A DNA stretch of 64,000 nucleotides from an uncultured virus (IMG/VR IMGVR_UViG_3300013127_000001) (IMGVR_UViG_3300013127_000001), one strand, 5' to 3'. Counted from the stretch's first letter, positions 4,476 to 64,000 are shown. The notes: generated by a model not told the origin, from the letters alone. Program-made: numbers and translations.

Positions 4476-4868
4476 TTATGAGTTACCTGCCAGGATTGCA
4501 GCTTCTGCCGCCTTTACCGACAACACCGCGTTATAAACGCTGGGGTCTTCAGCAAGTTCAGCAGCAGCCTGCTTGATAGCCTGATTGCGAACAGCAAGTT
4601 GCTGTTGCGCAGCTACAGGCGAAGTACCAAGCACAGAATCGAGAGCCGAAATAGCTCCCCCGAAGCGGCTATGAGCCGCGGCTTGCTTTTCAGCACCATC
4701 AACGTGACGCAGCTTCCCAGCCAACGCAAACAAGTCGGCAGCTTCTTTTTCAGTTGTAGGCTGAATACCGTAGCTAGCCAACTTGCCGAGGAAGACCTGG
4801 GCATGCACGCCATCGAACAATTGCTGATAAGCTACTGCCGGATCCGGCAGTGGATTGTTCTTAGACAT
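4476..4868 (-). CDS. Ala-rich head-associated protein with K-x-A motifs
   Basis: TEKEA, AEKQA, AIKQA; GGAG RBS upstream of ATG 4868. Confidence 0.7.
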   Translation of the reverse strand: MSKNNPLPDPAVAYQQLFDGVHAQVFLGKLASYGIQPTTEKEAADLFALAGKLRHVDGAEKQAAAHSRFGGAISALDSVLGTSPVAAQQQLAVRNQAIKQAAAELAEDPSVYNAVLSVKAAEAAILAGNS

Positions 4869-4910
4869 CAGTGCAAACTCCAAATTCTGGATTTTAAGGT
4901 GAAAACCTTA

Positions 4911-5186
4911 CTAGCTACCTGAGTTGTTCAGGTAGGACGAAACACCACCGCCATTGGCGTAGGGGTCGTATTCTACCTGATCACTTACAGCGCCAGGAAA
5001 AGGTTTGGGTGGTTGTTCTTGCGCACTAAGGTCAAGTTCGTTGACATCAATGCGATCAACAGTGTAACTGCGGTCTTGGCCAAGATCCCGAGGGTTCTTA
5101 ACGTCTTCCGCAGTAGAGACCTGACTAAACGGGCCTCGCTGTGTCAAACTTACGTCCACGTATGGACCAGGAAATGCCTGTGGCAT
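4911..5186 (-). CDS. Hypothetical protein downstream of MCP
   Basis: AAGGAGG RBS before ATG 5186 (MPQAFPG...). Confidence 0.65.
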   Translation of the reverse strand: MPQAFPGPYVDVSLTQRGPFSQVSTAEDVKNPRDLGQDRSYTVDRIDVNELDLSAQEQPPKPFPGAVSDQVEYDPYANGGGVSSYLNNSGS

Positions 5187-5213
5187 GTAACGAATCCTCC
5201 TTGAACCAAGCAA

Positions 5214-5241
5214 AGGTTCCCGAAACTAATTTCGGGAACCT
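5214..5241 (-). terminator. Hairpin/terminator after the major capsid gene
   Basis: 12-bp stem AGGTTCCCGAAA/TTTCGGGAACCT 17 nt after the MCP stop; short T tail. Confidence 0.65.
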
Positions 5242-5258
5242 AAGCTGGCACTTGTTGG

Positions 5259-6206
5259 TTAGGTGAAGTCGACACGGGCCAGACCGGAAGTATGACCGAT
5301 CGTTCCGCCCAAAGATTCGTAAGCGAAGAATTCGATGAAGTAAGCTTCACGACGAATGTACATCGTGGTGTCTTCCAACATGTAGCTCTTGCCAATGAAC
5401 TTGGGATCTGCGAAGTGGTACATGGTGTTGGTTGGCACCAGACCCTTCTTGATCGTGATGACCCACTTGACGCCCATGCACTCGCTAAGAGTCCAGCCGT
5501 TACGCATGACTTCTTCGCTGAGGTCACCACCCATTTCGTTACGAGTAAACTTCGCAACTTCCTTGATGGTGATGTTGTTGAGCAGAACGCAGTGAACTTC
5601 GAGGTTCGACGGCGTGTTGGGCATGATTTTCAACGAATCCCAGAGAGTATCACGAGTGATACCACCGGCGATTTGCTGATATTGAACCGTACCCGACGTT
5701 GGCACAACAAGCCCGGGGCCTACCAAGGCAGTGTTCACTGCCGAAATAAACTTACCGTCCTCTTCAGCGAGCATGTCCTTGATAGCGTTGTCGCTAAGGA
5801 CCTGTCGAATATCCATGTACCAAGTACGCAGTTCGTCGACATCTTTCGTGAACTTTGGAGTCACGATACGGTCGAACGTAACCTTGTAGCGGTCGCCACG
5901 AATATAGAGGTTGGTCGGCAAAGTTGCAAAAGGAATAGAAACAGCAGCAGGGCTGTCTGGTTCCTTGTCCACAATCTTAACCGGCTTGTCGGTGTCGACT
6001 TGACGATCAAGATCGTCGTTGCTGATCGGAACAGGTGGCATGATTCGACGGTAGAAACCATCTTCACGCATCTTGGTCCGGGTGAAGTCGTTAACCGCGT
6101 CTACAGCCTGCTTTTCCAGGCTCGGATCGCGGGACGACAGCTTCTCGAAAATCGCCTGGCTCAAGAGTTTACTTTCCTCTTGAGTCATTACGCTTGAGTT
6201 AGCCAT
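5259..6206 (-). CDS. Major capsid protein (HK97 fold)
   Basis: 315 aa; strong RBS; ...REDGFYRRIMPP..., IVTPKFTKDVDELR...DIRQVLSDNAIKDMLAEEDGKF spine-helix-like pattern; position after protease, scaffold and decoration genes. Confidence 0.8.
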   Translation of the reverse strand: MANSSVMTQEESKLLSQAIFEKLSSRDPSLEKQAVDAVNDFTRTKMREDGFYRRIMPPVPISNDDLDRQVDTDKPVKIVDKEPDSPAAVSIPFATLPTNLYIRGDRYKVTFDRIVTPKFTKDVDELRTWYMDIRQVLSDNAIKDMLAEEDGKFISAVNTALVGPGLVVPTSGTVQYQQIAGGITRDTLWDSLKIMPNTPSNLEVHCVLLNNITIKEVAKFTRNEMGGDLSEEVMRNGWTLSECMGVKWVITIKKGLVPTNTMYHFADPKFIGKSYMLEDTTMYIRREAYFIEFFAYESLGGTIGHTSGLARVDFT

Positions 6207-6231
6207 TGAGGAAAACCTCCTTGTAGGATAA

Positions 6232-6252
6232 CCGGACGGGGTAACCGTCCGG
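6232..6252 (-). promoter_or_regulatory. GC-rich hairpin in the MCP leader (stabiliser or processing site)
   Basis: CCGGACGG-5nt-CCGTCCGG between the decoration gene stop and the MCP RBS. Confidence 0.5.
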
Positions 6253-6271
6253 GTTCATGACTGGGGAAATG

Positions 6272-6811
6272 TTAGTTGGGGAATACCGGGAAAGGCCAGA
6301 ATGCCAAAGCACTCTTGCCGTAACCGTTGTCCACAACGCCGCGCGACACGATGCCGACGATCATATTGGTATACAGCGTCCCAGCTCGAAGTTTGCCGGG
6401 ATTTGCACTACCAGATTTGTTTGCCGTCAGCGGTGTATTGGGAGGATAAGAAGCGGCTACGAAAGCCGTACTTACCAACTCATACGCGCCAACAGCAACC
6501 AAGGCCATAGCCTGGCCAGTCGGACTGATTGGAATCCAAACACCCGGAGTCGTCGAAGCGTCGCCACCGTCGTTCACAACATCGGGATCATCCGAGTTGT
6601 TGAACAAGAACATAGGCATCACAGCCGAGTTACCAACGCCAAGGATAAAGTTTCCAGACGGATTCAGCGAAACCACTGAACCAGCCAAAACCGGAAGATC
6701 ACCACTAGGAATCGCAGAATCGAAAGCCGCATGGTAATCAACCGCATTCATTTGCGGCCAACCCTTCAACGCATTGAGAGTGTTGGCAGTCATTTGCCGT
6801 GGAGCAGGCAT
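6272..6811 (-). CDS. Probable capsid decoration/cement protein
   Basis: 179 aa, Gly/Pro/beta-rich, directly upstream of MCP, AGGAGG RBS. Confidence 0.55.
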   Translation of the reverse strand: MPAPRQMTANTLNALKGWPQMNAVDYHAAFDSAIPSGDLPVLAGSVVSLNPSGNFILGVGNSAVMPMFLFNNSDDPDVVNDGGDASTTPGVWIPISPTGQAMALVAVGAYELVSTAFVAASYPPNTPLTANKSGSANPGKLRAGTLYTNMIVGIVSRGVVDNGYGKSALAFWPFPVFPN

Positions 6812-6866
6812 TTTATACCTCCTGAGTCCAAGTTAAGGTCATCGTTGACCTTTGATTGTGAAATAG

Positions 6867-7307
6867 TTAGGAACGCGGAGCGTTCAAAACAGCCAGAATA
6901 GCATGGTCCGACGCTTTCTTTTCAGAAGTACGTCGTCCAACGTAAGGATCATTCAAACTGTCACGTACTTGAGTAGCTGACTTAAAGCCAGCTTCTTTTT
7001 CAGTGACAGCCTGCCCCAGATCAGACGCTGCCTTCTCTGATGCAGTCTTGTAAGCCTGCATTTTGTTGATAGCGTTGACCAGCAGATCCAAGGTTTGGGC
7101 AGGGTTGTTCAACATCTCAGCAGCTGCCTGCTTTTGATGTGGAGCAACACTTCCAGTTTGCAACATCAAGTCAAGAACAGCTTGTCGCTTTGCAGCGGCC
7201 TGCTTTTCTCGAGCTCGATGCGATTGCACTTCGCCCATCAGACGGTCATTCAGTGCCGAACTAGCGGCAATGAATTCAATCGTCTGGGCTGCAAGCTTCG
7301 TATTCAT
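6867..7307 (-). CDS. Helical head-associated protein, dense in K-x-A motifs
   Basis: NTKLA, REKQA, HQKQA, AYKTA, SEKAA, TEKEA, GFKSA, SEKKA. Confidence 0.7.
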   Translation of the reverse strand: MNTKLAAQTIEFIAASSALNDRLMGEVQSHRAREKQAAAKRQAVLDLMLQTGSVAPHQKQAAAEMLNNPAQTLDLLVNAINKMQAYKTASEKAASDLGQAVTEKEAGFKSATQVRDSLNDPYVGRRTSEKKASDHAILAVLNAPRS

Positions 7308-7345
7308 TACGGAAACCTCCGTGGTTGAAAATCTGTTAAATGGAA

Positions 7346-8617
7346 CTAGCGACGAGACCGTTCCAGGACTTCCTGGATGTAATCTCTTACGCTTTTGTCA
7401 GCGGACACCTTTTTAGCAGCCGCCTTCTTGCCCTGACCTTTAGCTGAAGCTTCAACTTCCATGCCAGGGGCATCGCCAGCAGCGTCTTCAGGAGGTGCTC
7501 CTTCAGCCGGACCAGCACCGCCGCCACCTGCCATAGCCGCCTCAAGCTCTTCAGGCGAAATGCCGAGTTGTTCTAACACGGCGGCAAGCTGCGCAATGTC
7601 ATCTCCACCTTCCCCTTCTGGAGGTGCACCACCCGCCATAGCATCAGCCATTGCAGGATCTTCACCACCTTCCATGGGAGAACCACCCATCATGGCAGCA
7701 GGGTCAACACCGGCAGGCATTTCGCCCTCAGCTTTTTTTGAAAGCTCATCCTGATAACTGATAAGGAATTCAGCTACCTTGTCTGCATCTTCCGACGCAG
7801 TTTTGATGATTTCTTCCAACGTATACTGTACTAAAGAGTCAGCAGCCTTCTTATCGAAGTTACCACTCAAAAGGCCAGCAAGCTCCCAACCAGCCTGTCC
7901 GGCCAAGTCAGCAGCTTCTTTCTCATCATCATCGTCGTCATCATCGTCGTCGTCCTTCTTTTCTCCGCTGCGAAGCGAAGAAAGATCAGATCCGTCGATT
8001 TTGCCGTTGTTGTTAACGTCCAACTTGTGTTGCCCGCCAACCAATTCAGCTTGCTTCTGTAGGTTTGCCAACTCTGCTAAGAGTCGGTTACCCATATCAG
8101 CAGCTACCTTGGCGAGCTGTTCAACTGGCATCTCAGCATACTTGTACCCGTCCAACTCGCTGTTGTTTGTACGAGCAGGGTGAGTTGTATTGCCAAGACG
8201 TCCACCCGAAGCATCTTCTTTTTCAGCTTTAGCTGAAGAAGTTTCGACCGCAGGATCTTCACCAGTTGGCTCTTTCTTGGTGCCAATTTGGAGTTGATCT
8301 TGCGATGCGGTACCTGGAGGATTGATAGAGCCGCCTTCGGACTTACCGTCCACGGCCTTCTTATCCGCCACGCCTTCGGGAGTACTATCAACGGATGGCT
8401 TTCCTTGATCGGCTTTCACATCTGCGGTATTTTCCGCAGAACGAGAACCTTCAGTCGCCTCTTCCGTCGAATCATCGACATTTTTGACAGGATGTGTCGT
8501 TGGACCACCAACGCTACCAGGCTCGGTGTGAGCCTCAGCAGCGCGCTTCTCGGTGGCGGCGACTTCCCGCAAAAATCGGTCGATAGATTTCATCGACTGC
8601 ATTGCAGAATTAGTCAT
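7346..8617 (-). CDS. Scaffold/prohead core-like acidic protein
   Basis: Low-complexity acidic 423 aa, poly-Asp run, many K-x-A motifs, DVNNNGKIDGSD loop; lies between protease and MCP. Confidence 0.65.
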   Translation of the reverse strand: MTNSAMQSMKSIDRFLREVAATEKRAAEAHTEPGSVGGPTTHPVKNVDDSTEEATEGSRSAENTADVKADQGKPSVDSTPEGVADKKAVDGKSEGGSINPPGTASQDQLQIGTKKEPTGEDPAVETSSAKAEKEDASGGRLGNTTHPARTNNSELDGYKYAEMPVEQLAKVAADMGNRLLAELANLQKQAELVGGQHKLDVNNNGKIDGSDLSSLRSGEKKDDDDDDDDDDEKEAADLAGQAGWELAGLLSGNFDKKAADSLVQYTLEEIIKTASEDADKVAEFLISYQDELSKKAEGEMPAGVDPAAMMGGSPMEGGEDPAMADAMAGGAPPEGEGGDDIAQLAAVLEQLGISPEELEAAMAGGGGAGPAEGAPPEDAAGDAPGMEVEASAKGQGKKAAAKKVSADKSVRDYIQEVLERSRR

Positions 8618-8656
8618 TACGCGCTCCTTGCAAAACGGTTTTGAGTTCCGTTTTAT

Positions 8657-10141
8657 CTAGTTAAAAACTTGATTCTGACAGAGACTCAACTTGACTGTCA
8701 ATGGAAAGTCTGCGTCAGCTGCGGCGAGCCGCCACAGGCTTGCCAGTTTATACATTGCGTAGTCTTTAGCCAACCTCTCGGCCGAATCGTCACAGCTTGC
8801 AAACTTCTCATACACAAAAATCGCAGGAGCGCTTTGCCCCCGGATACAACTTAGAATGCTCCGGTCACTTACCGCAGACTGACTTAATGAATAATCAGAA
8901 GTCAATGTTGCGGCAAGCATCCTGGAACTTTCATTTGCTGTCTTCTCAATAAACACACAAGCGCCACTCTCTACTCGCAGAGGTAGCGACTCGTCCGTCG
9001 TCATTCGTGTGTAAATTCCAGGCAGAATAGCCGCAGCAGTTTTACAATGCTCTTCACGACCAACTAACCTAGAATAATCACGCAAATTCAAAATAATCTT
9101 GCGATCCGCAAGCGCTGCAAGCTGCATATCGCATTGTACCGAACCGAACGCAGCGAGCTTTTCAACGGGAAAAGCAGGCGTTATCAGCGCTCGATACATA
9201 TTAGCATCTAATGATTCCCGGATTTTTTCAATAGCAGCAAGGCCATAACCTAGCCGAATTTGTGCAGCTTGTTTTTCTGACCAGAAGCCGTGATGTCCGC
9301 TTTGATACAGAATAACATCAACAGGAGCAGTCGAAGACTCAGCCATTTTGATATAGTCCTGCATCTCAAAAATGCCACGATCAGCTGCGGCTTTAGTCAA
9401 GTAATCAGCTTTGGCTCCGTAAGCAATTCGATCGGCTGGACGGAAAACGCGACTAATATCAAACCAAGTTGGATTTGGATTATCAACATGCAAATGATGT
9501 AAATCACTGCCAACTTTAACAAGCCGTGTCAAATTATCTCGACAACCTCCAGCAGCACATTTCTCCGTCGTACAATATTCATCTCGCGTGCGAGCAGCAT
9601 GCTTGCAGAAAGAACAAACATCATGAGGCACTCGACACGCCATGCTAACAGGCATGTCTTCGCCTCTTGCAAGTTTTTCAAGTTCAGTATCAGCAACGAA
9701 TCCGCCATTGCGATCTGCCGCGGACTTTTCGGCATTTAACGCACAAAGCAGTTCAACGCGACGCATGTCTTCATTGTAGGCTGACGCCTTAACCACTCCG
9801 TAAAACGGATCACCTCGTTCTGCTTTGTTTTTGTGGTTTCTAAAAAACTTGGCAAACTTTACGAACGTATCGTGATGGTTGCGACAAGTCGCTTCTTTGA
9901 AACCATCTCCGTTGCGATTTGGCCCATAAGCCTCACTAGCACCCAACGCAATTAGATGGACAGGTACTTCATCTGCTGCAAACTTGACGTTGTCTAATGC
10001 GGGCAGAAAGGCATGACTGGCTCGTTTAAGAAACTCATTCCTGTCATTACCAATTAAACCTCGACTACTTACCTTTATAGGTTCAAGAATCCGTTCTTCA
10101 AAATCCCAACCCGAAGGCGAGACAAACTTAATGTGTGCCAT
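8657..10141 (-). CDS. Prohead (capsid maturation) protease with Cys-rich insert and K-x-A-rich C-terminal half
   Basis: GPNRNGDGF, FRNH (His), VSMAC (Ser), CSFC...C...C insert, FDISRVFRPAD; pattern of HK97-type phage prohead serine proteases and canonical position upstream of scaffold/MCP. Confidence 0.7.
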   Translation of the reverse strand: MAHIKFVSPSGWDFEERILEPIKVSSRGLIGNDRNEFLKRASHAFLPALDNVKFAADEVPVHLIALGASEAYGPNRNGDGFKEATCRNHHDTFVKFAKFFRNHKNKAERGDPFYGVVKASAYNEDMRRVELLCALNAEKSAADRNGGFVADTELEKLARGEDMPVSMACRVPHDVCSFCKHAARTRDEYCTTEKCAAGGCRDNLTRLVKVGSDLHHLHVDNPNPTWFDISRVFRPADRIAYGAKADYLTKAAADRGIFEMQDYIKMAESSTAPVDVILYQSGHHGFWSEKQAAQIRLGYGLAAIEKIRESLDANMYRALITPAFPVEKLAAFGSVQCDMQLAALADRKIILNLRDYSRLVGREEHCKTAAAILPGIYTRMTTDESLPLRVESGACVFIEKTANESSRMLAATLTSDYSLSQSAVSDRSILSCIRGQSAPAIFVYEKFASCDDSAERLAKDYAMYKLASLWRLAAADADFPLTVKLSLCQNQVFN

Positions 10142-10153
10142 AGAAATAATGCC

Positions 10154-11443
10154 TTACTGGTTTTGCGCGCGATATTGGTTTTCTAGGTTGCCGTATTCTT
10201 GTTGTGCTTGCGCACGATCTGCACTTTGATCTTGGTAATTACCTAACAAAGCACCCGCAGCTCCAGTACCAAGAGCTGTAATCAGCGATGGAATAATAGC
10301 CCGAGGATTTTTAAGTCCACGCAAACCATCTCGGCTTATGTTTTTTACTAGTGCGTCTGAATCTTTACCAAATAACGACCGTAGCTTTGCAAGAATACTT
10401 GTTTGGCCACCTCTAAAAGCAGGATTGCTGCGGCTTCCAAACAAAGTAGACGTCAAACTAGGGGTATGCCCTTGAGCTTTTAATTGTTGAGCAATTTGCT
10501 GTTTCAGCGCGTCGTCAGTTGAACCTATGAACTCGTTCATTTGCCGTTGTGCCGCTGTATTTTTGAGTTCTTCAAAAAAGCCTTTACCCATTAGATTATC
10601 AAATTGTTGAATACCTGCTGCGTTAGGGTTTTTGCTGCCAATAAGATCTTTGTATTTTACTGCAAGCTCATTTGTTAAAAGTTTGGGATCATAAGTTTCT
10701 CGACTCAAACTTCTAGCAATACCATAACCGGTACCTGCGGCTGTACCTGTAAGACCTGCACCTAATATAGCTTCAGGCGCATACGTGCTAGCCTCACCGT
10801 GAAGTTTGTTTAGCTCGTCAGGACTAATCTTCTCAAGACTACGTGGTTCTTTTACTGTTGCGGGAGTTGCTGGTGCTTGTCCTGCTGGTGCTTGTCCTGC
10901 TGGTGCTTGTCCTGCTGGTGCTTGTCCTGCTGGTGCTTGTCCTGCTGGTGCTTGTTTTGGTAGTCGGTTTTGTAACTGTGCGTATAACTTGTCAGCTACG
11001 CCTGGATTTAGAGCTAGACCTAAACCGCCACCCAAAGCACCGCCAGCGACACCACCACGTAAAGCACTAGTCAAGTAATTGTCATCGCCACTCATTGCAG
11101 CTTGACCAAGACCAGCAGCAGCGCCGAGTCCTGTACCTGTTAAACCTGCCAGCAACGTGTTACGAGATGCCGGATCAAGATTACGATAATAGCTCTTTGC
11201 TTGATCTAAACCAGTTCTAGCCTGCTGCCCGAGCTGCCCAATTCCGGATTTTAAGCTGTCTAACCACCCACCTTCGGCCATCTTTTCAGCATAACTGTGG
11301 CCGATGTCTCGAAGCACAAGCGTATTCTCTAGCGCCTCAGGTGTCATGCGACGAATACGGCCCTGATCCATTGCTTGTTTACGCAATGCTAGCAACTTCA
11401 AACCTTGTTCGTAAGTAATATCAGCTAATGATACTGGCTTCAT
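10154..11443 (-). CDS. Glycine-zipper internal virion-like protein
   Basis: RKQA, AEKMA then hydrophobic GxxxG segments (AGLTGTGLGAAAGLG, GGVAGGALGGGLG); no Cys seen. Confidence 0.7.
   Translation of the reverse strand: MKPVSLADITYEQGLKLLALRKQAMDQGRIRRMTPEALENTLVLRDIGHSYAEKMAEGGWLDSLKSGIGQLGQQARTGLDQAKSYYRNLDPASRNTLLAGLTGTGLGAAAGLGQAAMSGDDNYLTSALRGGVAGGALGGGLGLALNPGVADKLYAQLQNRLPKQAPAGQAPAGQAPAGQAPAGQAPAGQAPATPATVKEPRSLEKISPDELNKLHGEASTYAPEAILGAGLTGTAAGTGYGIARSLSRETYDPKLLTNELAVKYKDLIGSKNPNAAGIQQFDNLMGKGFFEELKNTAAQRQMNEFIGSTDDALKQQIAQQLKAQGHTPSLTSTLFGSRSNPAFRGGQTSILAKLRSLFGKDSDALVKNISRDGLRGLKNPRAIIPSLITALGTGAAGALLGNYQDQSADRAQAQQEYGNLENQYRAQNQ
10868..10955. repeat. 15-bp tandem repeat (~5.9 copies) encoding (GQAPA)n
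   Basis: tgctggtgcttgtcc repeated perfectly. Confidence 0.95.
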
Positions 11444-12788
11444 TGCGCATCACGTCCGTATAAGAAGGGGCAGCTTGTGTGTCCTTGAGTCCTTTTTCAA
11501 GCTTAAGTGTTTCACCTACTTCAAAAGGTTCAACATTGCCAACAAGTCTTTTGTTAAGCAACGGACCGATTGCTGAAGGTTGGTCAGCTAGTCGCGGAGA
11601 CAGCTGCACCATTTCATTGTATGCAGATAACACTTCTTCAGGATCATAGCCGCTAATAGGGTTATCTGGGTCACTCATGAGCTGAGTAAGCACTGTTTGT
11701 GCTTTGATTTTCCTCAGCTCATTCAAATGTTCAGGACTGTCTAGCTCGTTAATCTGATTTTCAACTGCTTTTTCTTGGCCTTTACCTGCATACTCAGAAA
11801 GCATCTTAGGTACAGCAAAACCAGTCATGGCAGAACCAGGATCAAAAGCTGTTTTTTCCCCTGCATCACTCAACAATGAGGGAGTCAACGCGGCTGGACT
11901 CCCAATTGTAGACAGGTGCAGGGGTTGGGTAAAAGACTCGTAAACATCCCTCGCTGCGGCAAGTTTAGCGTCAGCAGCAACAAACGACTGTTGTGCGCGG
12001 TACAACTCTTGAGCTTGCTTAATTATTGCTTCAATTAAAGTGTAGGGCTCTTGGTTGTAACTTACAGGCGCTTGAAAACCACCCCAGCTAGGTCGATGAT
12101 CAGAAGCTCGTTTTTCTTTTGGAAAACGCTCTGCGACATAGTTGATAAGCTGTCGACCAGTTTCTCCAAAACGAATTGAAGTCGCATGCTCTACCTGAGC
12201 TAAAGGCAACCGATCGTAAGCAAATTTACGAAAGTAATTTTCCAGCAAATGCAGTTTAAGATTAAGCTGGTCTTCCGCGGCTTGCTTTTGTCGTCGAGCT
12301 TCTTCTGCTAACCGACGATGATAATCAAAAGCAGCAAAAGCACGCTTAATACGTATACCTGCGTGTTCATCGGCAATAAGCGGATCAACTTCTGCGCTAG
12401 CCGCTTTAATAAACGTGTTCAAATCGTAGTTCAACAGTTCTTGTTTAACTGCATCATCGTACGATGGTAGTCTTGGAGGTAGCGCTGAAACCTGAGCTAC
12501 TTTTTCCTGCGACTTACCCCACATAGTGTCGTGAATGGTGTCGTAGTCTGCCAATGGAAAGCTAGCGAGTTTATCAAGCACAGACTGGTTTTCATTCCAC
12601 TGTGCAAGTTGTCTCCCTGTGTTGAAAGCACTACACGCTGACTTCAAAAAGCCAGGAGAGTAATTCAACTGTTCTGCCACTTTTTGGAGTGCAGCATTTG
12701 GAGATAAACCTTGGTTGTCCACCAAGTCTACCGCCATTTTGACTCCATCCAAGAGTCGCTGTTCATCAGACTTACTTAGTGCTTGCAT
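11421..12788 (-). CDS. Helical head-associated protein with K-x-A motifs
   Basis: LDKLA, QEKVA, FIKAA, KEKRA, GEKTA; GGAGG RBS before ATG 12788. Confidence 0.7.
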   Translation of the reverse strand: MQALSKSDEQRLLDGVKMAVDLVDNQGLSPNAALQKVAEQLNYSPGFLKSACSAFNTGRQLAQWNENQSVLDKLASFPLADYDTIHDTMWGKSQEKVAQVSALPPRLPSYDDAVKQELLNYDLNTFIKAASAEVDPLIADEHAGIRIKRAFAAFDYHRRLAEEARRQKQAAEDQLNLKLHLLENYFRKFAYDRLPLAQVEHATSIRFGETGRQLINYVAERFPKEKRASDHRPSWGGFQAPVSYNQEPYTLIEAIIKQAQELYRAQQSFVAADAKLAAARDVYESFTQPLHLSTIGSPAALTPSLLSDAGEKTAFDPGSAMTGFAVPKMLSEYAGKGQEKAVENQINELDSPEHLNELRKIKAQTVLTQLMSDPDNPISGYDPEEVLSAYNEMVQLSPRLADQPSAIGPLLNKRLVGNVEPFEVGETLKLEKGLKDTQAAPSYTDVMRNEASIIS

Positions 12789-13800
12789 GGCTTTCTTGCC
12801 CCCTCCGTCGTTCGGCAAAAATGTTTCTGCCCTCTAGTTCGTCCATTTCTTTGATCGTACGACCGAGACCTGCCTCTACGGCTTCTTCGGCGTTAATCTC
12901 AGCAGCGGACGTATCGTACTTGCCAATCAGCTGATCCTCATATAATTGAGCGCCAGACCGACCAGTGCTCCAAGGCAACTCCGCCATGAGCGCATTAACG
13001 TTTTTCTCAAACTCTGTCTTACGATCGTCTGCACCTTTACCAGACCGATGAATTTCAATCAGTCGTGAGTGGGTTGCAAACAGTTCCATTACGTTGTATT
13101 TGTTGATTTCAAATACCATCGAAGCTTGCATACTACGACGCTGAATCTGCATAGAAAACTGTTGATTGAAATAATCTGCAAGGTCTTCCGGATTTCTTAC
13201 GTGTTGATGTCGCCGAAACCCGCTGATCATAATATCGCAAACAAGCGGACCGCCAAAATATGCAAAGAACTTCAAAGTCATGTCTAAGTGCGGTCTAGCG
13301 ATTTCTCGCACAATACGCAGCGCTGTCTTTGCTTTTTTACCTCGACCAATCTTGATCTCTTCTTCGTGATCGACGTACTGGTCGTATGCCGGTAAAAGAA
13401 TGCTTTTGATAATCCAATCGTGATGTCGAAGTTTGTTGCTTACGTTGAAAAAAAGCTTTTCATACCAATCAATGGTTTCTGGAAATGTCTTTGCGTTTTC
13501 AGCAATCTCGTCAAAAGACATGCCTGCAAGAAGGCGAGCTTCAATCATCAATGCGACTTCTGGCTCGAGTGCCCGCATTTCATTGATGGTATGCGCATAA
13601 TAAAGCCCGGGGTTGCTGTGTAATGCGCGATCTCGCACAGTACTGCCTTTATCCCAGTCAACCAAAAAAGTCTTGTAACCCTGAATCCATTTATCGTCGT
13701 GTCGCGTACAACGTTGTGGAGGTACAGACTGTCTCAAACGAAGAACACGTTCATGTCTCCAGTATGGTTTTTGAAAGGGATCACCCTGATAAACATCCAT
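12772..13800 (-). CDS. Hypothetical protein
   Basis: 342-aa ORF in operon, overlapping the next gene. Confidence 0.7.
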   Translation of the reverse strand: MDVYQGDPFQKPYWRHERVLRLRQSVPPQRCTRHDDKWIQGYKTFLVDWDKGSTVRDRALHSNPGLYYAHTINEMRALEPEVALMIEARLLAGMSFDEIAENAKTFPETIDWYEKLFFNVSNKLRHHDWIIKSILLPAYDQYVDHEEEIKIGRGKKAKTALRIVREIARPHLDMTLKFFAYFGGPLVCDIMISGFRRHQHVRNPEDLADYFNQQFSMQIQRRSMQASMVFEINKYNVMELFATHSRLIEIHRSGKGADDRKTEFEKNVNALMAELPWSTGRSGAQLYEDQLIGKYDTSAAEINAEEAVEAGLGRTIKEMDELEGRNIFAERRRGQESHASTK

Positions 13801-13821
13801 GCTAACTTTCAAGGGTATCTC

Positions 13822-14481: not shown

Positions 14482-14484
14482 AAG

Positions 14485-51311: not shown

Positions 51312-51339
51312 AATACGTCCTTGTTGGTTGCAAACCAAA

Positions 51340-57993: not shown

Positions 57994-59754
57994 TTATTGG
58001 TAAGCTGCTTGCTGCTGCTGCTGTTGTTGAATAATGTTTCCTTGTTGTTGTGGCGCAGTGCCTTGCGTCGGATCCTCAATAAACTGCTGTACACGGCCGT
58101 CTTCATTTGCTTTTTGCTGTGCCGCTTGCTGTGCGGCTACTGAAGCTTGTGGTGAGCCGTTATAAGCCTCCATCAGCTTCGGAATATGCGGATTTTGCAT
58201 CAACATATAAGCCAAAGGCAAACCAATACCGCCGAGAGCTGCACCACTGCCACCACCAAGACCATAACCAAGTGCAGCACCTCCGCCACCAAGCAACAAC
58301 GGAATCAACCAATTCTGATTCTGGCTAAAAAACTGACCAGCCTGGCCACCAAGACCGCCGAGCAAGTTACTAAGACTAAAGTTGCCTTGTGCGTCAGTAA
58401 ACTGACCCATCATATTGTTAGCTCGCTGAGAAGCGTCTTGCACGCCTTGCACAGCTTGACTGCCTTGTGCAAGTAGGTTGTCTAGCTCACCAAGACGTTG
58501 CTGCACTGCTGGGTTTTGAAATGCAGCATCTGCCAGTGCTTTTTCATCTGGCTTCATACCAGCCAGGCCGCGCTCAATAGCTCCAGGCAACTGCATTCCA
58601 CCGTATCCAATACCACCAAGAGCTGCACCAGCACCGATAGTACCTAGGTTCCTTCTAGCAATACCGGGAGCTGCGGCAATGCCGCGACCAGCAGCTCCCA
58701 ACGGATACTTTGCAAGATACAAAGGATCCATGTGTTGCACTATTGGAGTAGTATTTATTTTCGTACCTGGAATTCTTCCGGGCAAAAGACCAGCAAGCTG
58801 ACCATAGCGTGCAAATTCTGACGGATTTACATCATAACCTAAAGCGTTTGCACCCATACCCATGGTGTAACCAGCACCTGCACCACCCATGGCACGACGC
58901 TGGATATCTTGAATTGTTCTACCTGCATTAGGTGCAAACCTGCCAAGTGTGCCTCCTGTCAAAGCACCAACTCCCATGCTGCTCAACACGCCAGTCAAAG
59001 AAGGGTCTTCAGACATTAAGCCTGTATGCGGATTAAATGCACCCGTTCCTGCCCCTGTTAATGCTTGTTGTGCAATAGGACTGTTTTTGACAGCGCTTGC
59101 AGTGTTACTTACTGCTTGTCCTGCTCGCGCTAACGGACTAACAGCTTTCTGAGCTACAGGCGCTGCTTTTTGTACTACATTTGCAGCGTCATCTGCCATA
59201 GGTGCTACTGCTTTTGCAGCAGGCGCAAAGTAACGGCCAGCTGCACCTAAACCCTTCTGTAAATACGGCAAGGCTCTTGTGGCTACTTGCAAAAAAGCAA
59301 TCTTTTCAATTCCGGAATTTAGTTCGCTGGCTACTTTTTTGCCAAAGCGATCGCTGGCAAGTTTTACTGCCTGCCGAATTTCCTGCTCACCCATGCCAGC
59401 CTGAATTAGTCGACCAAAAAAGTTAGCCTGAAAACTGTTGAGCCCAGCCTTCTTCATGTACGCATCCAAGCTTTTGAAAGCGTCTTCACCTTTAGCGTCG
59501 GCCGCAGGATCAATCTTGTACTTCTTGTGACCTTCACCAGCCGCAGATGGATCCATGTTACAGCCAGACATTGCACGCTTGGCCATGGCTTGCTGAATAC
59601 CGCCAGCGTCAGCTGATGTCGCATGCACAGGTTGTGTCTTGGACAGCGGATTTGGATTTGTTGGAAGCGTGCTTCCCGCGGGAAACGAAGCAGCATATTG
59701 ATTGTTCATGAGCGGCATGGGCATGAAACCACGCTGAGATGGTGTATTAAACAT
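57994..59754 (-). CDS. Large glycine-zipper K-x-A protein with Gln-rich tail
   Basis: AAGGAGG RBS before ATG 59754; AKRA, MKKA, VKLA, IEKIA|F, then many GxxxG segments. Confidence 0.75.
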   Translation of the reverse strand: MFNTPSQRGFMPMPLMNNQYAASFPAGSTLPTNPNPLSKTQPVHATSADAGGIQQAMAKRAMSGCNMDPSAAGEGHKKYKIDPAADAKGEDAFKSLDAYMKKAGLNSFQANFFGRLIQAGMGEQEIRQAVKLASDRFGKKVASELNSGIEKIAFLQVATRALPYLQKGLGAAGRYFAPAAKAVAPMADDAANVVQKAAPVAQKAVSPLARAGQAVSNTASAVKNSPIAQQALTGAGTGAFNPHTGLMSEDPSLTGVLSSMGVGALTGGTLGRFAPNAGRTIQDIQRRAMGGAGAGYTMGMGANALGYDVNPSEFARYGQLAGLLPGRIPGTKINTTPIVQHMDPLYLAKYPLGAAGRGIAAAPGIARRNLGTIGAGAALGGIGYGGMQLPGAIERGLAGMKPDEKALADAAFQNPAVQQRLGELDNLLAQGSQAVQGVQDASQRANNMMGQFTDAQGNFSLSNLLGGLGGQAGQFFSQNQNWLIPLLLGGGGAALGYGLGGGSGAALGGIGLPLAYMLMQNPHIPKLMEAYNGSPQASVAAQQAAQQKANEDGRVQQFIEDPTQGTAPQQQGNIIQQQQQQQAAYQ

Positions 59755-59788
59755 AGACGCCTCCTTGGCCTTTGAAGTGTGAGCAGTA

Positions 59789-61747
59789 TTATCGTGCAAC
59801 AAGGCGTTGCAAAGCAATTTGAGCTGCGGACTTTTCTTCGTCATCAGCTTGATCTTTCTGACTGCGAAGCATCCACAAGTGCTTTTCTAGCTTGTGGGTC
59901 ATGTCTTGCAGCATATTGCTAGTAACAGGATCTGAGTCGGTGCTTTTGATCGCTTTGTTGAACATGTCGCACAAGCTTTTCAGCCTGGTTGTCAGCTCGT
60001 TAACAATTAAAGGCGGGCTCATGAACTTTAGCGGGAGCGCCGCCATCGCCGTTTGAGCTGCCATTTCTTCCACCAGACCAGAAGCTGGGTGACCCAACGC
60101 AACCATCCTTTCGGCAATGTCATCGCTTGTCTCCACAAGAGTACCGTAAACTTCATCCAAAAAGTCATGCAGCGGCTTGAACATGGTGCCTCGAGCATTC
60201 CAATGACAATGCTTAAACAACAGGCTCAGGTCGATGCAGTTAAAAACCAGATTTTGTAGCGTGTCTTGCATGCCGTCAGCTGCTTGTTTCATTGGACTAC
60301 CTTCTTCTCTTAAAACGTCACGAAACTGCTCGTTGAGCTTCTCCTTGCGAGCAGCCAGCGCTTCAAGGATTTCGTCACCTGTACGTTGCCGCTTAGCTCC
60401 CAAAAGTCTCATTATAAGCGATGGGTCTTGACTTTCCGAGATGTATCTACGCACTGCTACGTTTTTTAGATCTTCTGGTAGCCCAGTATGACTGTCAAAG
60501 CGCAAACCACGGCCGCGAGCCTGACTAGAACGGCTTTCATGCCAGTGCGGATCAAGCAACTGGATCAAGTTCGTGCCTTTAGTACTAATGCCTTCTGCCC
60601 CAGCAGGACCAAGCAGCAAAGCTCTGAGCTTACCTTCGTTATAATCTTGCAGAGCTTGTCGTCGTGCCTGTACTGGCATGCTGCCGTGGAACATGCCATA
60701 AGGTATCTTGTCTCGCTTGAGTGCCGCAGCATAAGGCTGGAGCCCTGCATCAATGTAGTTGGAGTAGATAATTGCTTTCTTACGCGGATCAGTTTCAAGC
60801 TCTGCTTTGAGATCAGTCATGGCTTGCTGAAGCTTGCCAGACTCCTCAAACGCGTTTAGTGGATTCTTGTCTGCCCTGAACGGCATCGTAGAAAGACTGG
60901 ACTGCCGAAGACCTGTCAAAAAAGAGTTCAAACTAGCAAGTTCCTGCCTTGTTAGCGGAAACTCTTGGTCTAGCTTCCAGGCCCAACCTAGCGGAATTTT
61001 TGATCGAATGGCTTTCTGTATGCGTTTCTGGTCTTTAGACAGTGGTACACGCACTGTTTGCTCGTCAACGTTTACACCTTCAGGTGTCTTGCTAGGCTGA
61101 TAATCTACCTTGCCTTTGAGTAACTCGCGCAGCTTGGGCTCGTTTTTGAGCACACCTTCTTCACCTACGCCTTGGCCGGTAATGCGACTAAGCCAAGATG
61201 GGTAGACTTTCTTGTAACCAACAAACTGTTGCTCAAAGGTTTCAGGGCTTATTTGCTTGTTGTGCAGCAGGCTTAGCAAACCAGCCAAGTCGCTTGGTGC
61301 ATTAGTTACAGGCGTACCTGTAAGCAGCATCACGTTCTTGGCTTTTTGTGCTGCTTTGGCTGCGGCTCGAGAACTAGCAGTGTTTGGATTACGAAGTCTG
61401 TGTGCTTCGTCAAATATCAGCGTTTCGGTGTCTGGAGCTGGCTCTTTGCCCATACCAAGTCCGGTATAGCTTAATACCTCAGGCTGAGAGCCTTCTGTAA
61501 ACTTCTCAATCTCTTTCTCATAGTTTGGCCTGAGTGACGCAGGAGCCACAGCAGCATAAGGCCCACCAGCGGCTTCAGCTGCTGCCAGACTGGATAAGCT
61601 CTTACCGGAACCAAGTCCATGGTAAAGTAACAGCCGGTTATCTCCCTCCTGCAAGCGCTGTTTGACGCGCTCTTGATGCTCTTGAAGCTGTACGTCTGGC
61701 TTGAGCGCGGCTTGCTTGGCCAGTTCCGTAATTTGGGAAGCTACCAT
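59789..61747 (-). CDS. SNF2-family ATPase/helicase fused to a Dps (ferritin-like) domain
   Basis: HGLGSGKS, DEAH, LTGTP, AGAEG, QARGRGLR; then MKQAA and HCHWN...LHDFLDE...DDIAER, LEKHLWML. Confidence 0.9.
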   Translation of the reverse strand: MVASQITELAKQAALKPDVQLQEHQERVKQRLQEGDNRLLLYHGLGSGKSLSSLAAAEAAGGPYAAVAPASLRPNYEKEIEKFTEGSQPEVLSYTGLGMGKEPAPDTETLIFDEAHRLRNPNTASSRAAAKAAQKAKNVMLLTGTPVTNAPSDLAGLLSLLHNKQISPETFEQQFVGYKKVYPSWLSRITGQGVGEEGVLKNEPKLRELLKGKVDYQPSKTPEGVNVDEQTVRVPLSKDQKRIQKAIRSKIPLGWAWKLDQEFPLTRQELASLNSFLTGLRQSSLSTMPFRADKNPLNAFEESGKLQQAMTDLKAELETDPRKKAIIYSNYIDAGLQPYAAALKRDKIPYGMFHGSMPVQARRQALQDYNEGKLRALLLGPAGAEGISTKGTNLIQLLDPHWHESRSSQARGRGLRFDSHTGLPEDLKNVAVRRYISESQDPSLIMRLLGAKRQRTGDEILEALAARKEKLNEQFRDVLREEGSPMKQAADGMQDTLQNLVFNCIDLSLLFKHCHWNARGTMFKPLHDFLDEVYGTLVETSDDIAERMVALGHPASGLVEEMAAQTAMAALPLKFMSPPLIVNELTTRLKSLCDMFNKAIKSTDSDPVTSNMLQDMTHKLEKHLWMLRSQKDQADDEEKSAAQIALQRLVAR

Positions 61748-61992
61748 GGAATTCTGCTTACCAGCAAAGCTAAAGAAACCGCCACACAAAGCAGTCCAAG
61801 CCAGCCCAGAATTTTGATCGGTGACTTAGTGTGCTTCAAAGAAGCTAGAAACATCAAGTCAGTCACTACTGTCCACATAGCAAACAGCAGCGTTAGCAGT
61901 GGCCAGTTAAACCAAGCCAAAGCCAAAGTGCTCAAAGGCAAGCCAATGAGCACCAAGACAACAATGCTGACCAAGAATGCTAGGCTTTCCAT
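61741..61992 (-). CDS. Small multi-TM membrane protein
   Basis: Three hydrophobic segments; overlaps the start of the next gene. Confidence 0.6.
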   Translation of the reverse strand: MESLAFLVSIVVLVLIGLPLSTLALAWFNWPLLTLLFAMWTVVTDLMFLASLKHTKSPIKILGWLGLLCVAVSLALLVSRIPW

Positions 61993-61995
61993 AAT

Positions 61996-64000
61996 TTAGC
62001 AGTTCCATTTTCGCAAAGATTTGTTGATACGACTGTCTGGATCGTTTGCCGTTTCTTTACTGGTAAGCTTGCTCTTCATGCCGCCCATCCTGGCGCAAAA
62101 GCTGGCTTTGCGCCCTGCACGCTCGCCTTTGGGATTGCTTTCAGTAACTGGCGGCTTGATGTCGTGACCCTGTGCTTTGAGGCTGGCACGGCCTTTAGCG
62201 TTAAGCCCGCCTGAATCGCTCTGGCCTTCTTCGCGGGTCCAAGCACCTTCAGCTTGCTTAACTGCCAGTCGAGCCATTTTTTGAATTGGCGAATTGTCGT
62301 CAAAGCCACATTCACCGTCAGGCTTACCGCAACCACAGCTACACGCTTCAGCTCCTGCTTTCAAACTACCAAGACCGCCAGAAGCTGCGCCGGAAAGCAT
62401 ACCTGTCAATACGTTCATTAATCGACTTTTATCTTTTCCAGTTTCAGGATTTACGCCAGGGTTTTCAGCTAATCCTTTCAAGCCACCAAAAGCGCTACCT
62501 AAAACCAAGCTAGGAACGGCATTCATTGCCAATTGCGCTATAGCGTTTGCTTTCTTTTCTTCCTTTGGTTTACGCTCAAATTTCTCTTTCTTCTCAGCCT
62601 CAGGTTTAGCTTCGTTAGTCGCTTCAGACTCATCATTTTCAAACAGCTCAGGGTAGCTGGCCCGCATCGCATCTAACTTGGTGCGACCACGAAGCCGGTC
62701 ATAGAGCACCTCAGGCAAACCACGGGGAAAGTTGCGGGTAATGCCGCTTTTGCGAGGATGGTTCCATCGCAAGCCGATATAGGGGCTAATGCCGTAATCA
62801 GAGTTGACAGAAGGAGTAACGCCCATCGAAAAGCCTTTCCGGGGGCCACCAATGTCGATACCAGCCAACGGTATGGGCAACGTGCCTAGCAGATTGGTGT
62901 AGCCAAGCTCGCCACCAATGCCGCGACCTTTAGGATGCAGGCCCAAACTACCGCCGCCCCAAGCTAAAAACGCCTGCTTAATGTGCTGGTCGATGTTTGC
63001 TTGCTTCACTTTACTTTTTTTTTTCTTACCTGAACCGGCCGGTCGACAGCTGTCTTCACTGTAAGGTGCCTTGCCGGGTACAGGCTCATAACCTTTCCAG
63101 CAACGGGCTTGCTTAACTGCTTCCCGGGCAAGTAAAGCTACATCGCTTATGGAGAACGCCTCTTTTTCTTCCATTTTTGATCTACGCTCAAACGTTTGAG
63201 GTTTGCTTTCAGTCGGACTGGCAAGCTGCGTTTTGATGTTCTGACCGTAACCATGAAGTAAAGATGCGGGCGGGCCTACATAAGGTAGGTTACCAAGCGT
63301 ATAAAGGGCACTGCGAGCGCCACGCTGCTCAGGAATTGTTCGTTCACCTCGCATTGCTTTGACAGCTTCAACCTGTCCAGTGCGGTGCGGTCCACGCAAA
63401 GGCAACAGAAAAGCAGACAAAGCTGACAGCTTAGGATCTTTAGAATTAACTTTACCGGCCGCAGAATCTTCGTCATAAAAATGTCCGATTCGCTTCATTT
63501 CATTACGACGAACACGACCTGCATTTAACTTACCAGCTATTGCTCCAAGAAGCGCACCTGCACCGCCAAGTGTAGTAGGGGCTTCGCCGCTTGCTCTGCC
63601 TGTGAGGTAGTTTAAGCCTATACCAGCTCCTGTGCCTAATAACCCACCTAACCCTCCACCAACTAAAGAGTGACCAACAGTTTGCATATAAGGATGACGC
63701 ACGCCAAAAGTAGTCTTTTCACCAATAGCATCAGCCATGGCCTGAGTTCGACCCGCACGTTCTCCACCCCAATGTACTGGAGCTAGGTAATCAGCTAACG
63801 CTCCGCCCACGCTGTTCATGTCCACAATCTTCTTAGAAGGCGAATCTTTCTTTTTAGGCTTGTCTTCGTCTTCGGCCGCTTGCTTGACTGAAACCAAGAG
63901 TTGAGCGGCTTGGCGATGCAGCATGTTCAACGCGTCGCTGGCTTCTTTCTCTTTGACCTTCTCTGGCAGCTTTTTACCGCGGCTGGAATCATTCCATTCG
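61996..64000 (-). CDS. Modular K-x-A-punctuated polyprotein-like virion protein (5' end outside window)
   Basis: Frame stays open to the edge (EWNDSSRGKKLPEKVKEKEA...); modules separated by KQA/KEA/KKA; C-terminal AWTREEG...SFCARM...SLRKWNC domain. Confidence 0.8.
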   Translation of the reverse strand, partial: EWNDSSRGKKLPEKVKEKEASDALNMLHRQAAQLLVSVKQAAEDEDKPKKKDSPSKKIVDMNSVGGALADYLAPVHWGGERAGRTQAMADAIGEKTTFGVRHPYMQTVGHSLVGGGLGGLLGTGAGIGLNYLTGRASGEAPTTLGGAGALLGAIAGKLNAGRVRRNEMKRIGHFYDEDSAAGKVNSKDPKLSALSAFLLPLRGPHRTGQVEAVKAMRGERTIPEQRGARSALYTLGNLPYVGPPASLLHGYGQNIKTQLASPTESKPQTFERRSKMEEKEAFSISDVALLAREAVKQARCWKGYEPVPGKAPYSEDSCRPAGSGKKKKSKVKQANIDQHIKQAFLAWGGGSLGLHPKGRGIGGELGYTNLLGTLPIPLAGIDIGGPRKGFSMGVTPSVNSDYGISPYIGLRWNHPRKSGITRNFPRGLPEVLYDRLRGRTKLDAMRASYPELFENDESEATNEAKPEAEKKEKFERKPKEEKKANAIAQLAMNAVPSLVLGSAFGGLKGLAENPGVNPETGKDKSRLMNVLTGMLSGAASGGLGSLKAGAEACSCGCGKPDGECGFDDNSPIQKMARLAVKQAEGAWTREEGQSDSGGLNAKGRASLKAQGHDIKPPVTESNPKGERAGRKASFCARMGGMKSKLTSKETANDPDSRINKSLRKWNC

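Follow-up and report, generated by a model that had tools for sequence, protein, structure and literature searches.

A conserved Lys-x-Ala motif in phage head proteins as a candidate cleavage code of the prohead protease

The 64,000-nucleotide stretch of an uncultured virus analyzed here (IMG/VR IMGVR_UViG_3300013127_000001; the whole stretch is called the window) encodes a head-assembly module whose proteins are rich in the tripeptide Lys-x-Ala (K-x-A), together with a protease whose structural model has the fold shared by T4 gp21 and herpesvirus assemblin. We propose that K-x-A, in its fuller form hydrophobic-E-K-x-A-[A/S], is the P3-x-P1 cleavage code of this prohead serine protease, encoded at 8657-10141, and that the cut would fall after Ala. 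From the motif statistics, the model and the analogy with known proteases, we put the probability of this reading at about 0.65.

Motif excess in the head-assembly module

All long open reading frames (ORFs) of the window lie on the minus strand. The protease gene is located within the head-assembly module beside the genes for the scaffold and the major capsid protein (MCP), and the order of the head genes (14485-17058, further genes, 11421-12818, 10154-11443, protease 8657-10141, scaffold 7346-8617, 6867-7307, 6272-6811 and MCP 5259-6206) is identical in Salmonella phage Arash, Vibrio phage D69 and Bacillus phage G. The following features carry the argument; expected values are from shuffles.

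4476-17365, minus strand: head-assembly module
14485-17058, minus strand: 857-residue head-module protein, 11 K-x-A versus 3.8 expected, most of them within residues 1-260
11421-12818, minus strand: head-module protein of unassigned fold, 14 K-x-A versus 3.6 expected
8657-10141, minus strand: predicted prohead protease; the protease domain (about residues 16-234) is followed by a disordered linker and, at the C-terminus, by a helical scaffold-like domain (AlphaFold2 [AF2] model, structure alignment and homology)
7346-8617, minus strand: acidic scaffold-like protein, 13 K-x-A versus 4.8 expected (also conservation)
6867-7307, minus strand: small head-module protein, 8 K-x-A versus 2.0 expected
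5259-6206, minus strand: MCP, HK97-type by homology (tblastn)
4476-4883, minus strand: small protein downstream of the MCP gene, 5 K-x-A versus 1.5 expected

The original prediction, made from the sequence, held that K-x-A recurs in the head proteins and in about 15 other ORFs. Indeed, every example it quoted was found: LEKQA at residue 32 of the MCP (5259-6206), FSKQAF (28472-28894, residue 38), IEKIAF (57994-59844, residue 181), FEKRAF (50583-51371, residue 101), GEKTAF (11421-12818, residue 322), LDKMAF (22034-22717, residue 20) and PEKQAL (27197-28093, residue 123). The count of about 15 was overstated, since most single K-x-A outside the head module are at chance level. When the density was compared with shuffles made within each ORF, which preserve its composition, the excess over the Lys/Ala background was clear: 165 K-x-A were observed versus 102.0 expected in 72 non-overlapping minus-strand ORFs (20,866 residues). 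A shuffle P of 0.006 or less was reached by 7 of the 72 ORFs (4476-4883, 6867-7307, 7346-8617, 8657-10141, 11421-12818, 14485-17058 and 29908-31002). The head module contained 78 K-x-A versus 27.0 expected, and there was no excess in the RNA polymerase block (23 versus 22.8), the tail-fibre block (2 versus 2.7) or the metabolic/sugar block (35 versus 29.5), where the motif had correctly been called inconspicuous. At 57994-63930, plain K.A (Lys and Ala with one residue between them) was found 20 times versus 15.8 expected and the longer form [LIMFVE]K.A[ASF] 7 times versus 1.0.

In a scan of all residue pairs in the window, K.A was the top pair among those one position apart (z 6.3), and the collagen pair G..G was the only one to outscore it. 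In the seven richest ORFs, K.A occurred 70 times versus 20.0 expected (z 12.2, 3.5-fold) and EK.A[AS] 14 times versus 0.3, whereas A.K, AK, KA, K...A, K.S, K.G and E.A were at or below expectation and Arg did not replace Lys (R.A 13 versus 15.2). There was no sign of a Glu-type motif either (E.A 22 versus 22.6 expected), and no x-x-E pair was among the top pairs of the window. The motif is register- and residue-specific. Its extended consensus, hydrophobic(-2)-E(-1)-K-x-A-[A/S](+3)-[D/E](+4), did not differ between the window and the combined Arash and D69 sites; Glu preceding Lys was enriched 4.5-fold, and the residue following Ala was Ala or Ser in 36 of 66 window sites and 41 of 67 Arash/D69 sites. 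The motif-rich ORFs are not paralogs of each other; paralogy, and with it an inherited repeat, was rejected as the source of the motif.

T4 gp21 cleaves at the motif L/I-x-E. Applied to T4 genes 67, 68, 21 and 22 as a control, the same pair statistic ranked I.E (15 versus 5.9 expected) and L.E (16 versus 7.0) first, with K.A unremarkable, and thus recovered the known gp21 cleavage motif.

The protease and its candidate sites

An AF2 model of the protease ORF, built from a 30-sequence alignment, had a mean predicted local distance difference test score (pLDDT) of 76.9 and consisted of a mixed alpha/beta N-domain (about residues 16-234), a low-confidence linker (residues 236-273, pLDDT below 50) and a helical C-domain (residues 274-494). 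Residues 16-234 of the model aligned by VIA-align to T4 gp21 (5jbl_A) with a Z score of 8.6 and a root mean square deviation of 3.2 over 140 of 165 residues; the proteases of herpes simplex virus 2 (HSV-2; 1at3) and human cytomegalovirus (HCMV) gave Z scores of 5.7 and 4.8, and unrelated MCE-domain proteins gave at most 4.8. In a Foldseek search of the PDB, the top three matches were chains of T4 gp21 (5jbl; E 0.1 to 0.17). The model thus has the T4 gp21/herpesvirus assemblin fold. The ORF matched no Pfam family at an E value of 1 or less and no PHROG at 0.001 or less, its profile retrieved nothing from the PDB sequences at an E value of 1 or less, and hhalign of the protease alignment against T4 gp21 gave no alignment (probability 0.4%). 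Since there was no match to a sequence family (S77, T4-type; S78, HK97-type), the protease is classed as a fold-level relative only. It is homologous to gp222 of Arash and to gp19 of phage G, which is listed as the head maturation protease of that phage in a passage of PMC12484599.

The candidate active-site residues and cleavage sites are as follows.

9827-9835, minus strand: H103-K-N, candidate catalytic histidine (His invariant in 30 sequences)
9638-9646, minus strand: S166-M-A, candidate nucleophile (Ser invariant in 30 sequences)
9386-9394, minus strand: K250-A-A, candidate release site in the protease linker, comparable to the herpesvirus R-site (conservation, AF2 linker)
8741-8749, minus strand: K465-L-A, 27 residues before the protease C-terminus, candidate site comparable to the herpesvirus M-site (conservation)
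6105-6113, minus strand: K32-Q-A34 of the MCP, candidate propeptide cleavage site (column conservation)

H103 and S166 are 63 residues apart, in the order His before Ser. Neither H62 nor H218 was invariant in the same 30 sequences, and a third, triad His is thus not established. Intein-like insertions of about 120 to 400 residues were found in 39 of the best 150 family representatives, namely those of at least 600 residues (homologs P0005 to P0137). At least 17 are located right after S166-M-A and 5 right after H103; about 10 others precede N-R-N-G-D (residues 74-79) and 3 precede C176, so that all four insertion points are inside the most conserved protease motifs (for example, L004:2066-4690). 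The protease gene of the window itself is free of inteins. Inteins usually occupy catalytic motifs, and the insertions at H103 and S166 therefore favour these two residues as the candidate active centre.

The protease ORF contains 16 K-x-A versus 3.6 expected. Among 54 distinct homologs, the K39 site was kept in 98%, K250 in 96% and K465 in 93%, against identities of 0.20 to 0.42 in the surrounding 16 positions (0.20 for K250); K465 is followed by a conserved tail with L481, T482, Q489 and N490 at 90% or more. A profile search of 1.84 billion representatives returned 3,822 family proteins at an E value of 0.001 or less, counted as clusters at 50% identity in a public protein library, and 2,112 at 1e-30 or less. 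K.A exceeded twice its expectation in all of the 150 best-listed protease representatives (2097 versus 603 in total), with R.A at 1.09-fold and A.K at 0.73-fold.

The MCP had tblastn matches to the Arash MCP (28.7% identity, E 2e-30) and to the major head protein gp27 of phage G (E 1e-5). In an alignment of 25 MCPs reaching down to 29% identity, K32 and A34 were the first invariant columns, and upstream of them both sequence and length were variable. The site was present in the MCP of every relative compared except the outlier L076. The AF2 model of the MCP (mean pLDDT 53.8) was too poor for placing K32-A34 on the HK97 fold. In the scaffold-like protein 7346-8617, sites 24, 256 and 397 were kept in 84 to 94% of 50 homologs, site 397 lying 26 residues from the C-terminus; in all clades shown, the scaffold proteins had one to three K-x-A located 15 to 45 residues before a conserved basic C-tail. 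Sites 46 and 83 of 11421-12818 were kept in 96 to 98% of 45 homologs. The original prediction proposed to check the conservation of the motif in homologs; conserved sites were found in the MCP, the protease, the scaffold and 11421-12818. Many further K-x-A sites turned over among homologs, with their density maintained.

An MCP relative was encoded by 75 IMG/VR contigs, mostly of 150 to 235 kb. K.A was the top-ranked pair in 63 of 76 loci, which are mutually related and do not amount to 76 independent tests; it was at ranks 2 to 7 in 11 more and at ranks 69 and 268 in two outliers. The deep branches L074, L075, Arash, D69 and phage G can be taken as lineages of their own. K.A was found 71 times versus 35.3 expected in L074 and 76 times versus 33.4 in L075. 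The counts in Arash gp220, gp222, gp223 and gp225 were 10, 7, 8 and 7 (3.0, 3.0, 3.0 and 1.8 expected), those in the D69 counterparts 11, 8, 10 and 6 (4.0, 3.0, 2.9 and 1.5 expected), and phage G had a weaker excess in its gp19 (8 versus 2.5) and gp21 (7 versus 3.0). The outlier at rank 268, L076 (IMGVR_UViG_3300036791_001907), encodes a weak MCP relative (37.5% identity, E 8e-15) and has no excess of K.A in its ORFs, and no protease homolog was found in its fetched 20 kb; as judged on these 20 kb, it serves as a natural negative control.

Probable cleavage, possible docking and the known maturation systems

If K-x-A is the cleavage code, the protease, the scaffold proteins and the capsid protein would assemble together into the procapsid. 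The protease would bind its substrates as extended strands, its S3 pocket accepting Lys and its S1 pocket Ala, and would cut after Ala. About 34 N-terminal residues would be taken off the capsid protein, and the scaffold-like protein 7346-8617, the products of 6867-7307, 4476-4883 and 11421-12818 and the N-terminal part of 14485-17058 would be cut into peptides. By cutting at K250-A-A, the protease would release itself from its C-terminal scaffold-like domain, and by cutting at K465-L-A it would detach the conserved 27-residue tail of that domain; the two sites would mirror the R and M sites of herpesvirus pUL26. In the clade of the window, the same code probably also trims short leaders or joints on a few putatively packaged proteins, namely the SNF2-Dps protein, the SET protein and the products of the ORFs starting at 22034, 28472, 29908 and 50583. 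By analogy, the reading of K-x-A as a cleavage code is supported by where the sites lie: at the MCP N-terminus, in the scaffold, in the linker and C-tail of the protease and at N-terminal leaders, as do the sites of such proteases. The spacing of Lys (i) and Ala (i+2) also matches the P3-x-P1 rule of the T4, phiKZ and herpesvirus proteases.

To our knowledge, only a few phages have a prohead protease whose cleavage rule has been described, and the rules of the T4/phiKZ type all end in Glu. The T4 system resembles that of the window in its protease fold, in the place of the protease gene beside the scaffold and MCP genes, and in a motif whose specificity residues are two positions apart and which has many copies in the scaffold and the protease but a single one close to the N-terminus of the MCP. 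Short leaders that end in the motif are found on unrelated proteins of the window and are candidate counterparts of the capsid-targeting leaders of T4, where the substrates of gp21 are the propeptides of gp23 and gp24, scaffold gp22, gp67, gp68 and internal proteins with such leaders. The window differs in its motif (K-x-A versus [L/I]-x-E), in the 220-residue helical C-domain of its protease and in having no similarity to gp21 at the sequence level, and cleavage in the window is predicted from sequence. The jumbo-phage prohead proteases phiKZ gp175 and SPN3US gp245 recognize S/A/G-x-E. According to passages of PMC5694885 and PMC10052503, the motif terminates the N-terminal propeptides of many head and ejection proteins and is found several times within propeptides. 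These passages also describe self-cleavage of the protease, which in the window is our proposal, and a block of virion RNA polymerase genes is nearby in both. In contrast, the window protease would have Ala instead of Glu at P1 and Lys at P3, and it belongs to another phage lineage (MCP and protease of the Arash/phage G type).

Herpesvirus proteases cleave at V/L/I-x-A|S. The pUL26 protein has an N-terminal protease of the same fold superfamily (see the HSV-2 and HCMV scores above), and in both systems Ala would be at P1 and a small residue at P1'. According to the passages of PMC4498786 that describe pseudorabies virus (PrV) pUL26, the protease is followed by the R-site (YLQA-T226), the scaffold part and the M-site (VQA-S488), which removes an MCP-binding tail of 37 residues. 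The window protease has a candidate Ala-containing linker site after its protease domain (K250-A-A) and a second candidate site near the C-end (K465-L-A, 27 residues). Unlike pUL26, it would have Lys at P3 instead of Val, Leu or Ile, its main scaffold protein is a separate gene (7346-8617) instead of a nested in-frame UL26.5 product, and a His-Ser-His triad is not established. In HK97, the gp4 protease removes the delta-domain of gp5. There, a prohead protease of the same fold superfamily takes the N-terminal part off an HK97-fold MCP, as we propose for the window, but the propeptide in the window would be only about 34 residues long, the scaffold proteins are separate and the motif is different.

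Several observations weigh against cleavage at K-x-A. The MCP of phage G has no K-x-A, the P1' residue at the MCP site varies (V, I, E, A and G), and the relatives in which the motif is conserved are non-independent samples. Several conserved K-x-A are inside the folded protease domain, where their conservation could be structural. The profile comparison with T4 gp21 was empty, so that the catalytic residues were assigned by conservation. The free-standing Dps of the relative G001, which starts M-K-Q-A-A-D, would leave a leader of 4 residues, a poor fit for a site that needs upstream residues. A position-specific scoring matrix (PSSM) built from the window sites gave 44 matches in the Arash genome versus 22.0 expected, of which 18 were in gp220, gp222, gp223 and gp225 (1.25 expected); matches outside these four head genes were at chance (26 versus 20.8), and the virion-abundant Arash helicase gp217 and RNA polymerase subunits do not have the motif. 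Finally, neither cleavage products nor mature N-termini are on record for any member; the Arash paper is silent on a protease or cleavage, its supplement has no peptide data, and the sequence coverage it gives (such as 100% from 2 peptides) is too coarse to locate N-termini. A predicted complex of protease residues 15-240 with MCP residues 1-70 scored 0.05 versus a mark of 0.32 in a prediction without controls, and we draw nothing from this score.

K-x-A could also be a motif that is never cut and docks proteins onto one shared partner (for instance, the inside of the capsid shell, the portal or the C-domain of the protease) for incorporation into the procapsid. This would agree with its enrichment in proteins that must co-assemble, with the many copies per scaffold protein, which suit multivalent binding, with its occurrence in sequences that AF2 predicts to be helical and with its place at residues 2 to 4 of the free-standing Dps. 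However, the strict i/i+2 placement of Lys and Ala, the small residue that follows and the intolerance of Arg speak for strand-like P3-x-P1 recognition as in the gp21, phiKZ and herpesvirus proteases; linkers, leader ends and C-tails are the layout of known cleavage sites, and in T4 the same statistic picks out a true cleavage motif. We consider docking unlikely. A protease could instead cut after Lys (E-K|x-A), which would put Ala at P2'. Lys is the most constrained residue, the maturation site of the HK97 capsid protein is cut after Lys, and both the enrichment of the preceding Glu and the variable residue after Ala at the MCP site would fit. But Arg never substitutes for Lys, which would be unusual for a basic S1 pocket, Ala or Ser is strongly preferred after Ala, as in the A|S rule of herpesviruses, and P3-x-P1 spacing is the usual pattern of the family, all of which makes a cut after Lys quite improbable.

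An origin of the pattern in helical composition rich in Ala, Lys and Glu, or in chance, is close to refuted. The scaffold-like proteins are indeed rich in these residues and predicted to be helical, and 102 K-x-A would be expected by chance in the window; but the 3.5-fold excess of K.A remains over shuffles that preserve composition, single sites are far better conserved than the residues around them (at the MCP site, without exception down to 29% identity), and the motif-rich ORFs are not paralogs. Ala/Lys helix composition was rejected as the motif source by the pair controls, in which A.K, AK, KA, K...A and E.A were unenriched. Cleavage after Ala with Lys at P3 thus remains the reading we prefer. 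The original prediction had the phage use a K-x-A code with its own prohead protease; the specificity and conservation of the motif, its co-occurrence with a gp21-fold protease and the P3-x-P1 spacing uphold this, whereas the cutting itself is something we infer.

A search of the available literature found no paper that links a prohead or maturation protease with a Lys-X-Ala motif. Most likely, by analogy, the Lys-x-Ala rule is a cutting rule not yet described for phages, in a system of the same kind as those of T4 and phiKZ with a different, herpesvirus-like specificity. If so, it would form a bridge between the phage enzymes and the Ala|Ser rule of herpesviruses and would cover thousands of uncultured phages of 170 to 235 kb as well as three cultured groups in which it is directly testable (Salmonella phage Arash, Vibrio phages D69, D148 and D181 and Bacillus phage G). 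Mature capsid, scaffold and portal-region proteins would become predictable from sequence, and in the clade of the window the motif would flag candidate packaged enzymes, such as the SNF2-Dps and SET-domain proteins. A wider proposal, which we regard as doubtful, is that a large clade of phage prohead proteases cuts in herpesvirus-like fashion after Ala with Lys at P3 and that in the lineage of the window the code also loads and releases enzymatic cargo in the capsid from leaders and shuffled polyproteins (SNF2, Dps, SET, NUDIX, kinase and peptidase). If this cargo reading were true, the packaged effector set of a phage could be read from sequence.

Leaders and joints outside the head module and further genes

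When the PSSM was instead derived from the sites of Arash and D69 alone, it gave 32 matches of at least 9 bits in the window versus 4.1 expected. The ORFs of 4476-17365 held 21 of them, including one in the scaffold that does not have Lys (GMEVEASA), and 11 were elsewhere versus about 3 expected: in the ORFs starting at 22034, 36884, 50583 (two), 51340, 57994, 59789 (two) and 61996 (two) and in the RNA polymerase, where they are at chance level. Window ORFs with one or two matches had 11 of 20 in the first 80 residues versus 6.6 expected (P of about 0.016). The same bias was found in the complete relative G002 (12 of 21 versus 6.6; P of about 0.006), which as a whole had 39 matches versus 13.6 expected, clustered in the head module, in multi-module ORFs at 58 to 69 kb, in three small ORFs at 84.8 to 86.2 kb and in one ORF at 182.5 kb. 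The original prediction took the motif to identify virion cargo far from the structural cluster. This stands in part: the outside matches exceed expectation and several are conserved, but in Arash, where matches outside the four head genes are at chance and gp217 and the RNA polymerase have no motif, K-x-A as a genome-wide marker of virion proteins was not supported.

Proteins with such sites, whose conservation was checked in the genomes of five relatives, are as follows, together with one small ORF of the head module.

17084-17365, minus strand: 93-residue ORF, 3 K-x-A, two strong PSSM matches (residues 19 and 53)
22034-22717, minus strand: Pro/Gly/Met-repeat protein, variable leader ending K20-M-A-F-V (K-x-A-F-V in 5 of 6 sequences, the window and 4 of 5 relatives)
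28472-28894, minus strand: small protein with a hydrophobic segment, K30-Q-A-A-D (K-x-A in 6 of 6 aligned sequences)
29908-31002, minus strand: 364-residue protein with a Gly-rich hydrophobic C-terminal half, 5 K-x-A versus 1.1 expected (P 0.004)
36173-36634, minus strand: SET-domain protein (Pfam SET), leader ending K26-A-A-S just before the domain (K-x-A in 4 of 4 aligned sequences)
50583-51371, minus strand: protein whose helical part resembles a tape measure protein (match to PHROG tape-measure families at E 1e-6), with four K-x-A (residues 51, 76, 89 and 101)
57994-64000, minus strand: cluster of multi-module ORFs, including the next two
59789-61789, minus strand: SNF2 helicase fused to a Dps/ferritin domain (Pfam, PHROGs), with three K-x-A: 61709-61717 in the N-leader, 60281-60289 at the joint between SNF2 and Dps, and 59825-59833, 11 residues from the C-end
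61996-63999, minus strand: multi-module ORF running off the window and ending in DUF6321 (Pfam, PHROGs, PSSM)

In 22034-22717, K-x-A-F-V was kept despite very different leader lengths among the relatives. In 29908-31002, all 6 sequences had site 110, and 4 of the 6 had site 33. In 50583-51371, sites 51, 76 and 89 were kept in the relatives that cover them (34 to 46% identity), and its two strong PSSM matches compare with 0.05 expected. Leaders ending in K-x-A were found in SNF2 (residue 25, or 11 if M15 is the start), SET (26), 22034 (20) and 28472 (30).

As had been noted before, K-x-A marks the module boundaries of the SNF2-Dps ORF: the sites at residues 25, 501 and 653 flank both Pfam domains (SNF2, about 122-431; ferritin/Dps, 510-646). 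The SNF2 part shares 34% identity with Arash gp217, which is among the most abundant proteins of the virion proteome (1148 spectra), alongside the RNA polymerase subunits (PMC10585845, Table 2). The window SNF2 has an extra N-terminal leader ending L-A-K-Q-A-A that Arash does not have, and in relatives the leaders have different sequences that also end in K-x-A about 10 residues before a conserved LQPHQ. A related-locus search with the whole SNF2-Dps protein found no relative; the modules were then searched directly in the records of five relatives. These shuffle SNF2, Dps, DUF6321, kinase, NUDIX and peptidase modules among ORFs, with K-x-A at the joints. In G001, SNF2 is followed by a K-x-A-rich linker and DUF6321, and Dps is a separate gene; in G002, a P-loop kinase is followed by T-L-A-K-Q-A-A-T and Dps; and the NUDIX and metallopeptidase modules of the relatives are joined via K-x-A to a shared C-terminal domain. 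The window Dps has an in-frame ATG with a weak Shine-Dalgarno-like GAAGG upstream, and in light of this ATG and of the separate Dps starting MKQAAD, the junction motif may, on a plainer reading, simply be the Dps N-terminus. The suggestion that effectors are released from polyproteins is thus partly supported: the shuffled modules with K-x-A joints fit it, but the separate Dps gene in the closest relative and the ATG in the window allow the plainer reading. The frame 61996-63999 has one K-Q-A about 10 residues before DUF6321 and another near its predicted N-terminus.

DUF6321 (residues 593-665 of that open frame) was always at the extreme C-terminus in eight PHROG families with profile lengths of 99 to 928, and it resembles a portable module appended to the C-terminus of phage proteins that are otherwise unrelated. 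In G002 (L094), a 394-residue protein far from the head module (182513-183697, minus strand) had 17 K-x-A and 8 strong PSSM matches versus 0.32 expected; it has no counterpart in the window and is possibly a second scaffold-like protease substrate. After its leader, the product of 22034-22717 consists of tandem GGAPPMDPA-like Pro/Gly/Met repeats whose number differs among relatives. The ORF 10154-11443, between the protease gene and 11421-12818, encodes a (PAGQA)n repeat and Gly/Ala-rich hydrophobic stretches, has K-x-A at residues 22 and 54 and had a homolog in only 2 to 5 of the fetched loci. Pfam at an E value of 1 or less gave nothing meaningful for ten head-module and other ORFs. The product of 14485-17058 is homologous to Arash gp218, an abundant virion protein.

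The remainder of the window contains the following.

1-2752: tail fibres, collagen-like
17431-21093, minus strand: RNA polymerase gene 2, C-terminal part of beta' (1220 residues)
22745-27196, minus strand: RNA polymerase gene 1, beta fused to the N-terminal part of beta' (1483 residues)

The two-gene multisubunit RNA polymerase adjoins the head module and has K-x-A at chance level in both subunits; the Arash homologues of these subunits are the most abundant proteins of its virion proteome (PMC10585845). The window also encodes a class II ribonucleotide reductase. A long run of glycosyl-, sulfo- and methyltransferases, dTDP-sugar enzymes, a cytidylyltransferase and a PhyH-like dioxygenase (31053-57677), without motif excess, suggests an elaborate sugar or DNA modification. 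The two neighbouring collagen-repeat tail-fibre genes were about 46 to 51% identical to each other across the repeat region.

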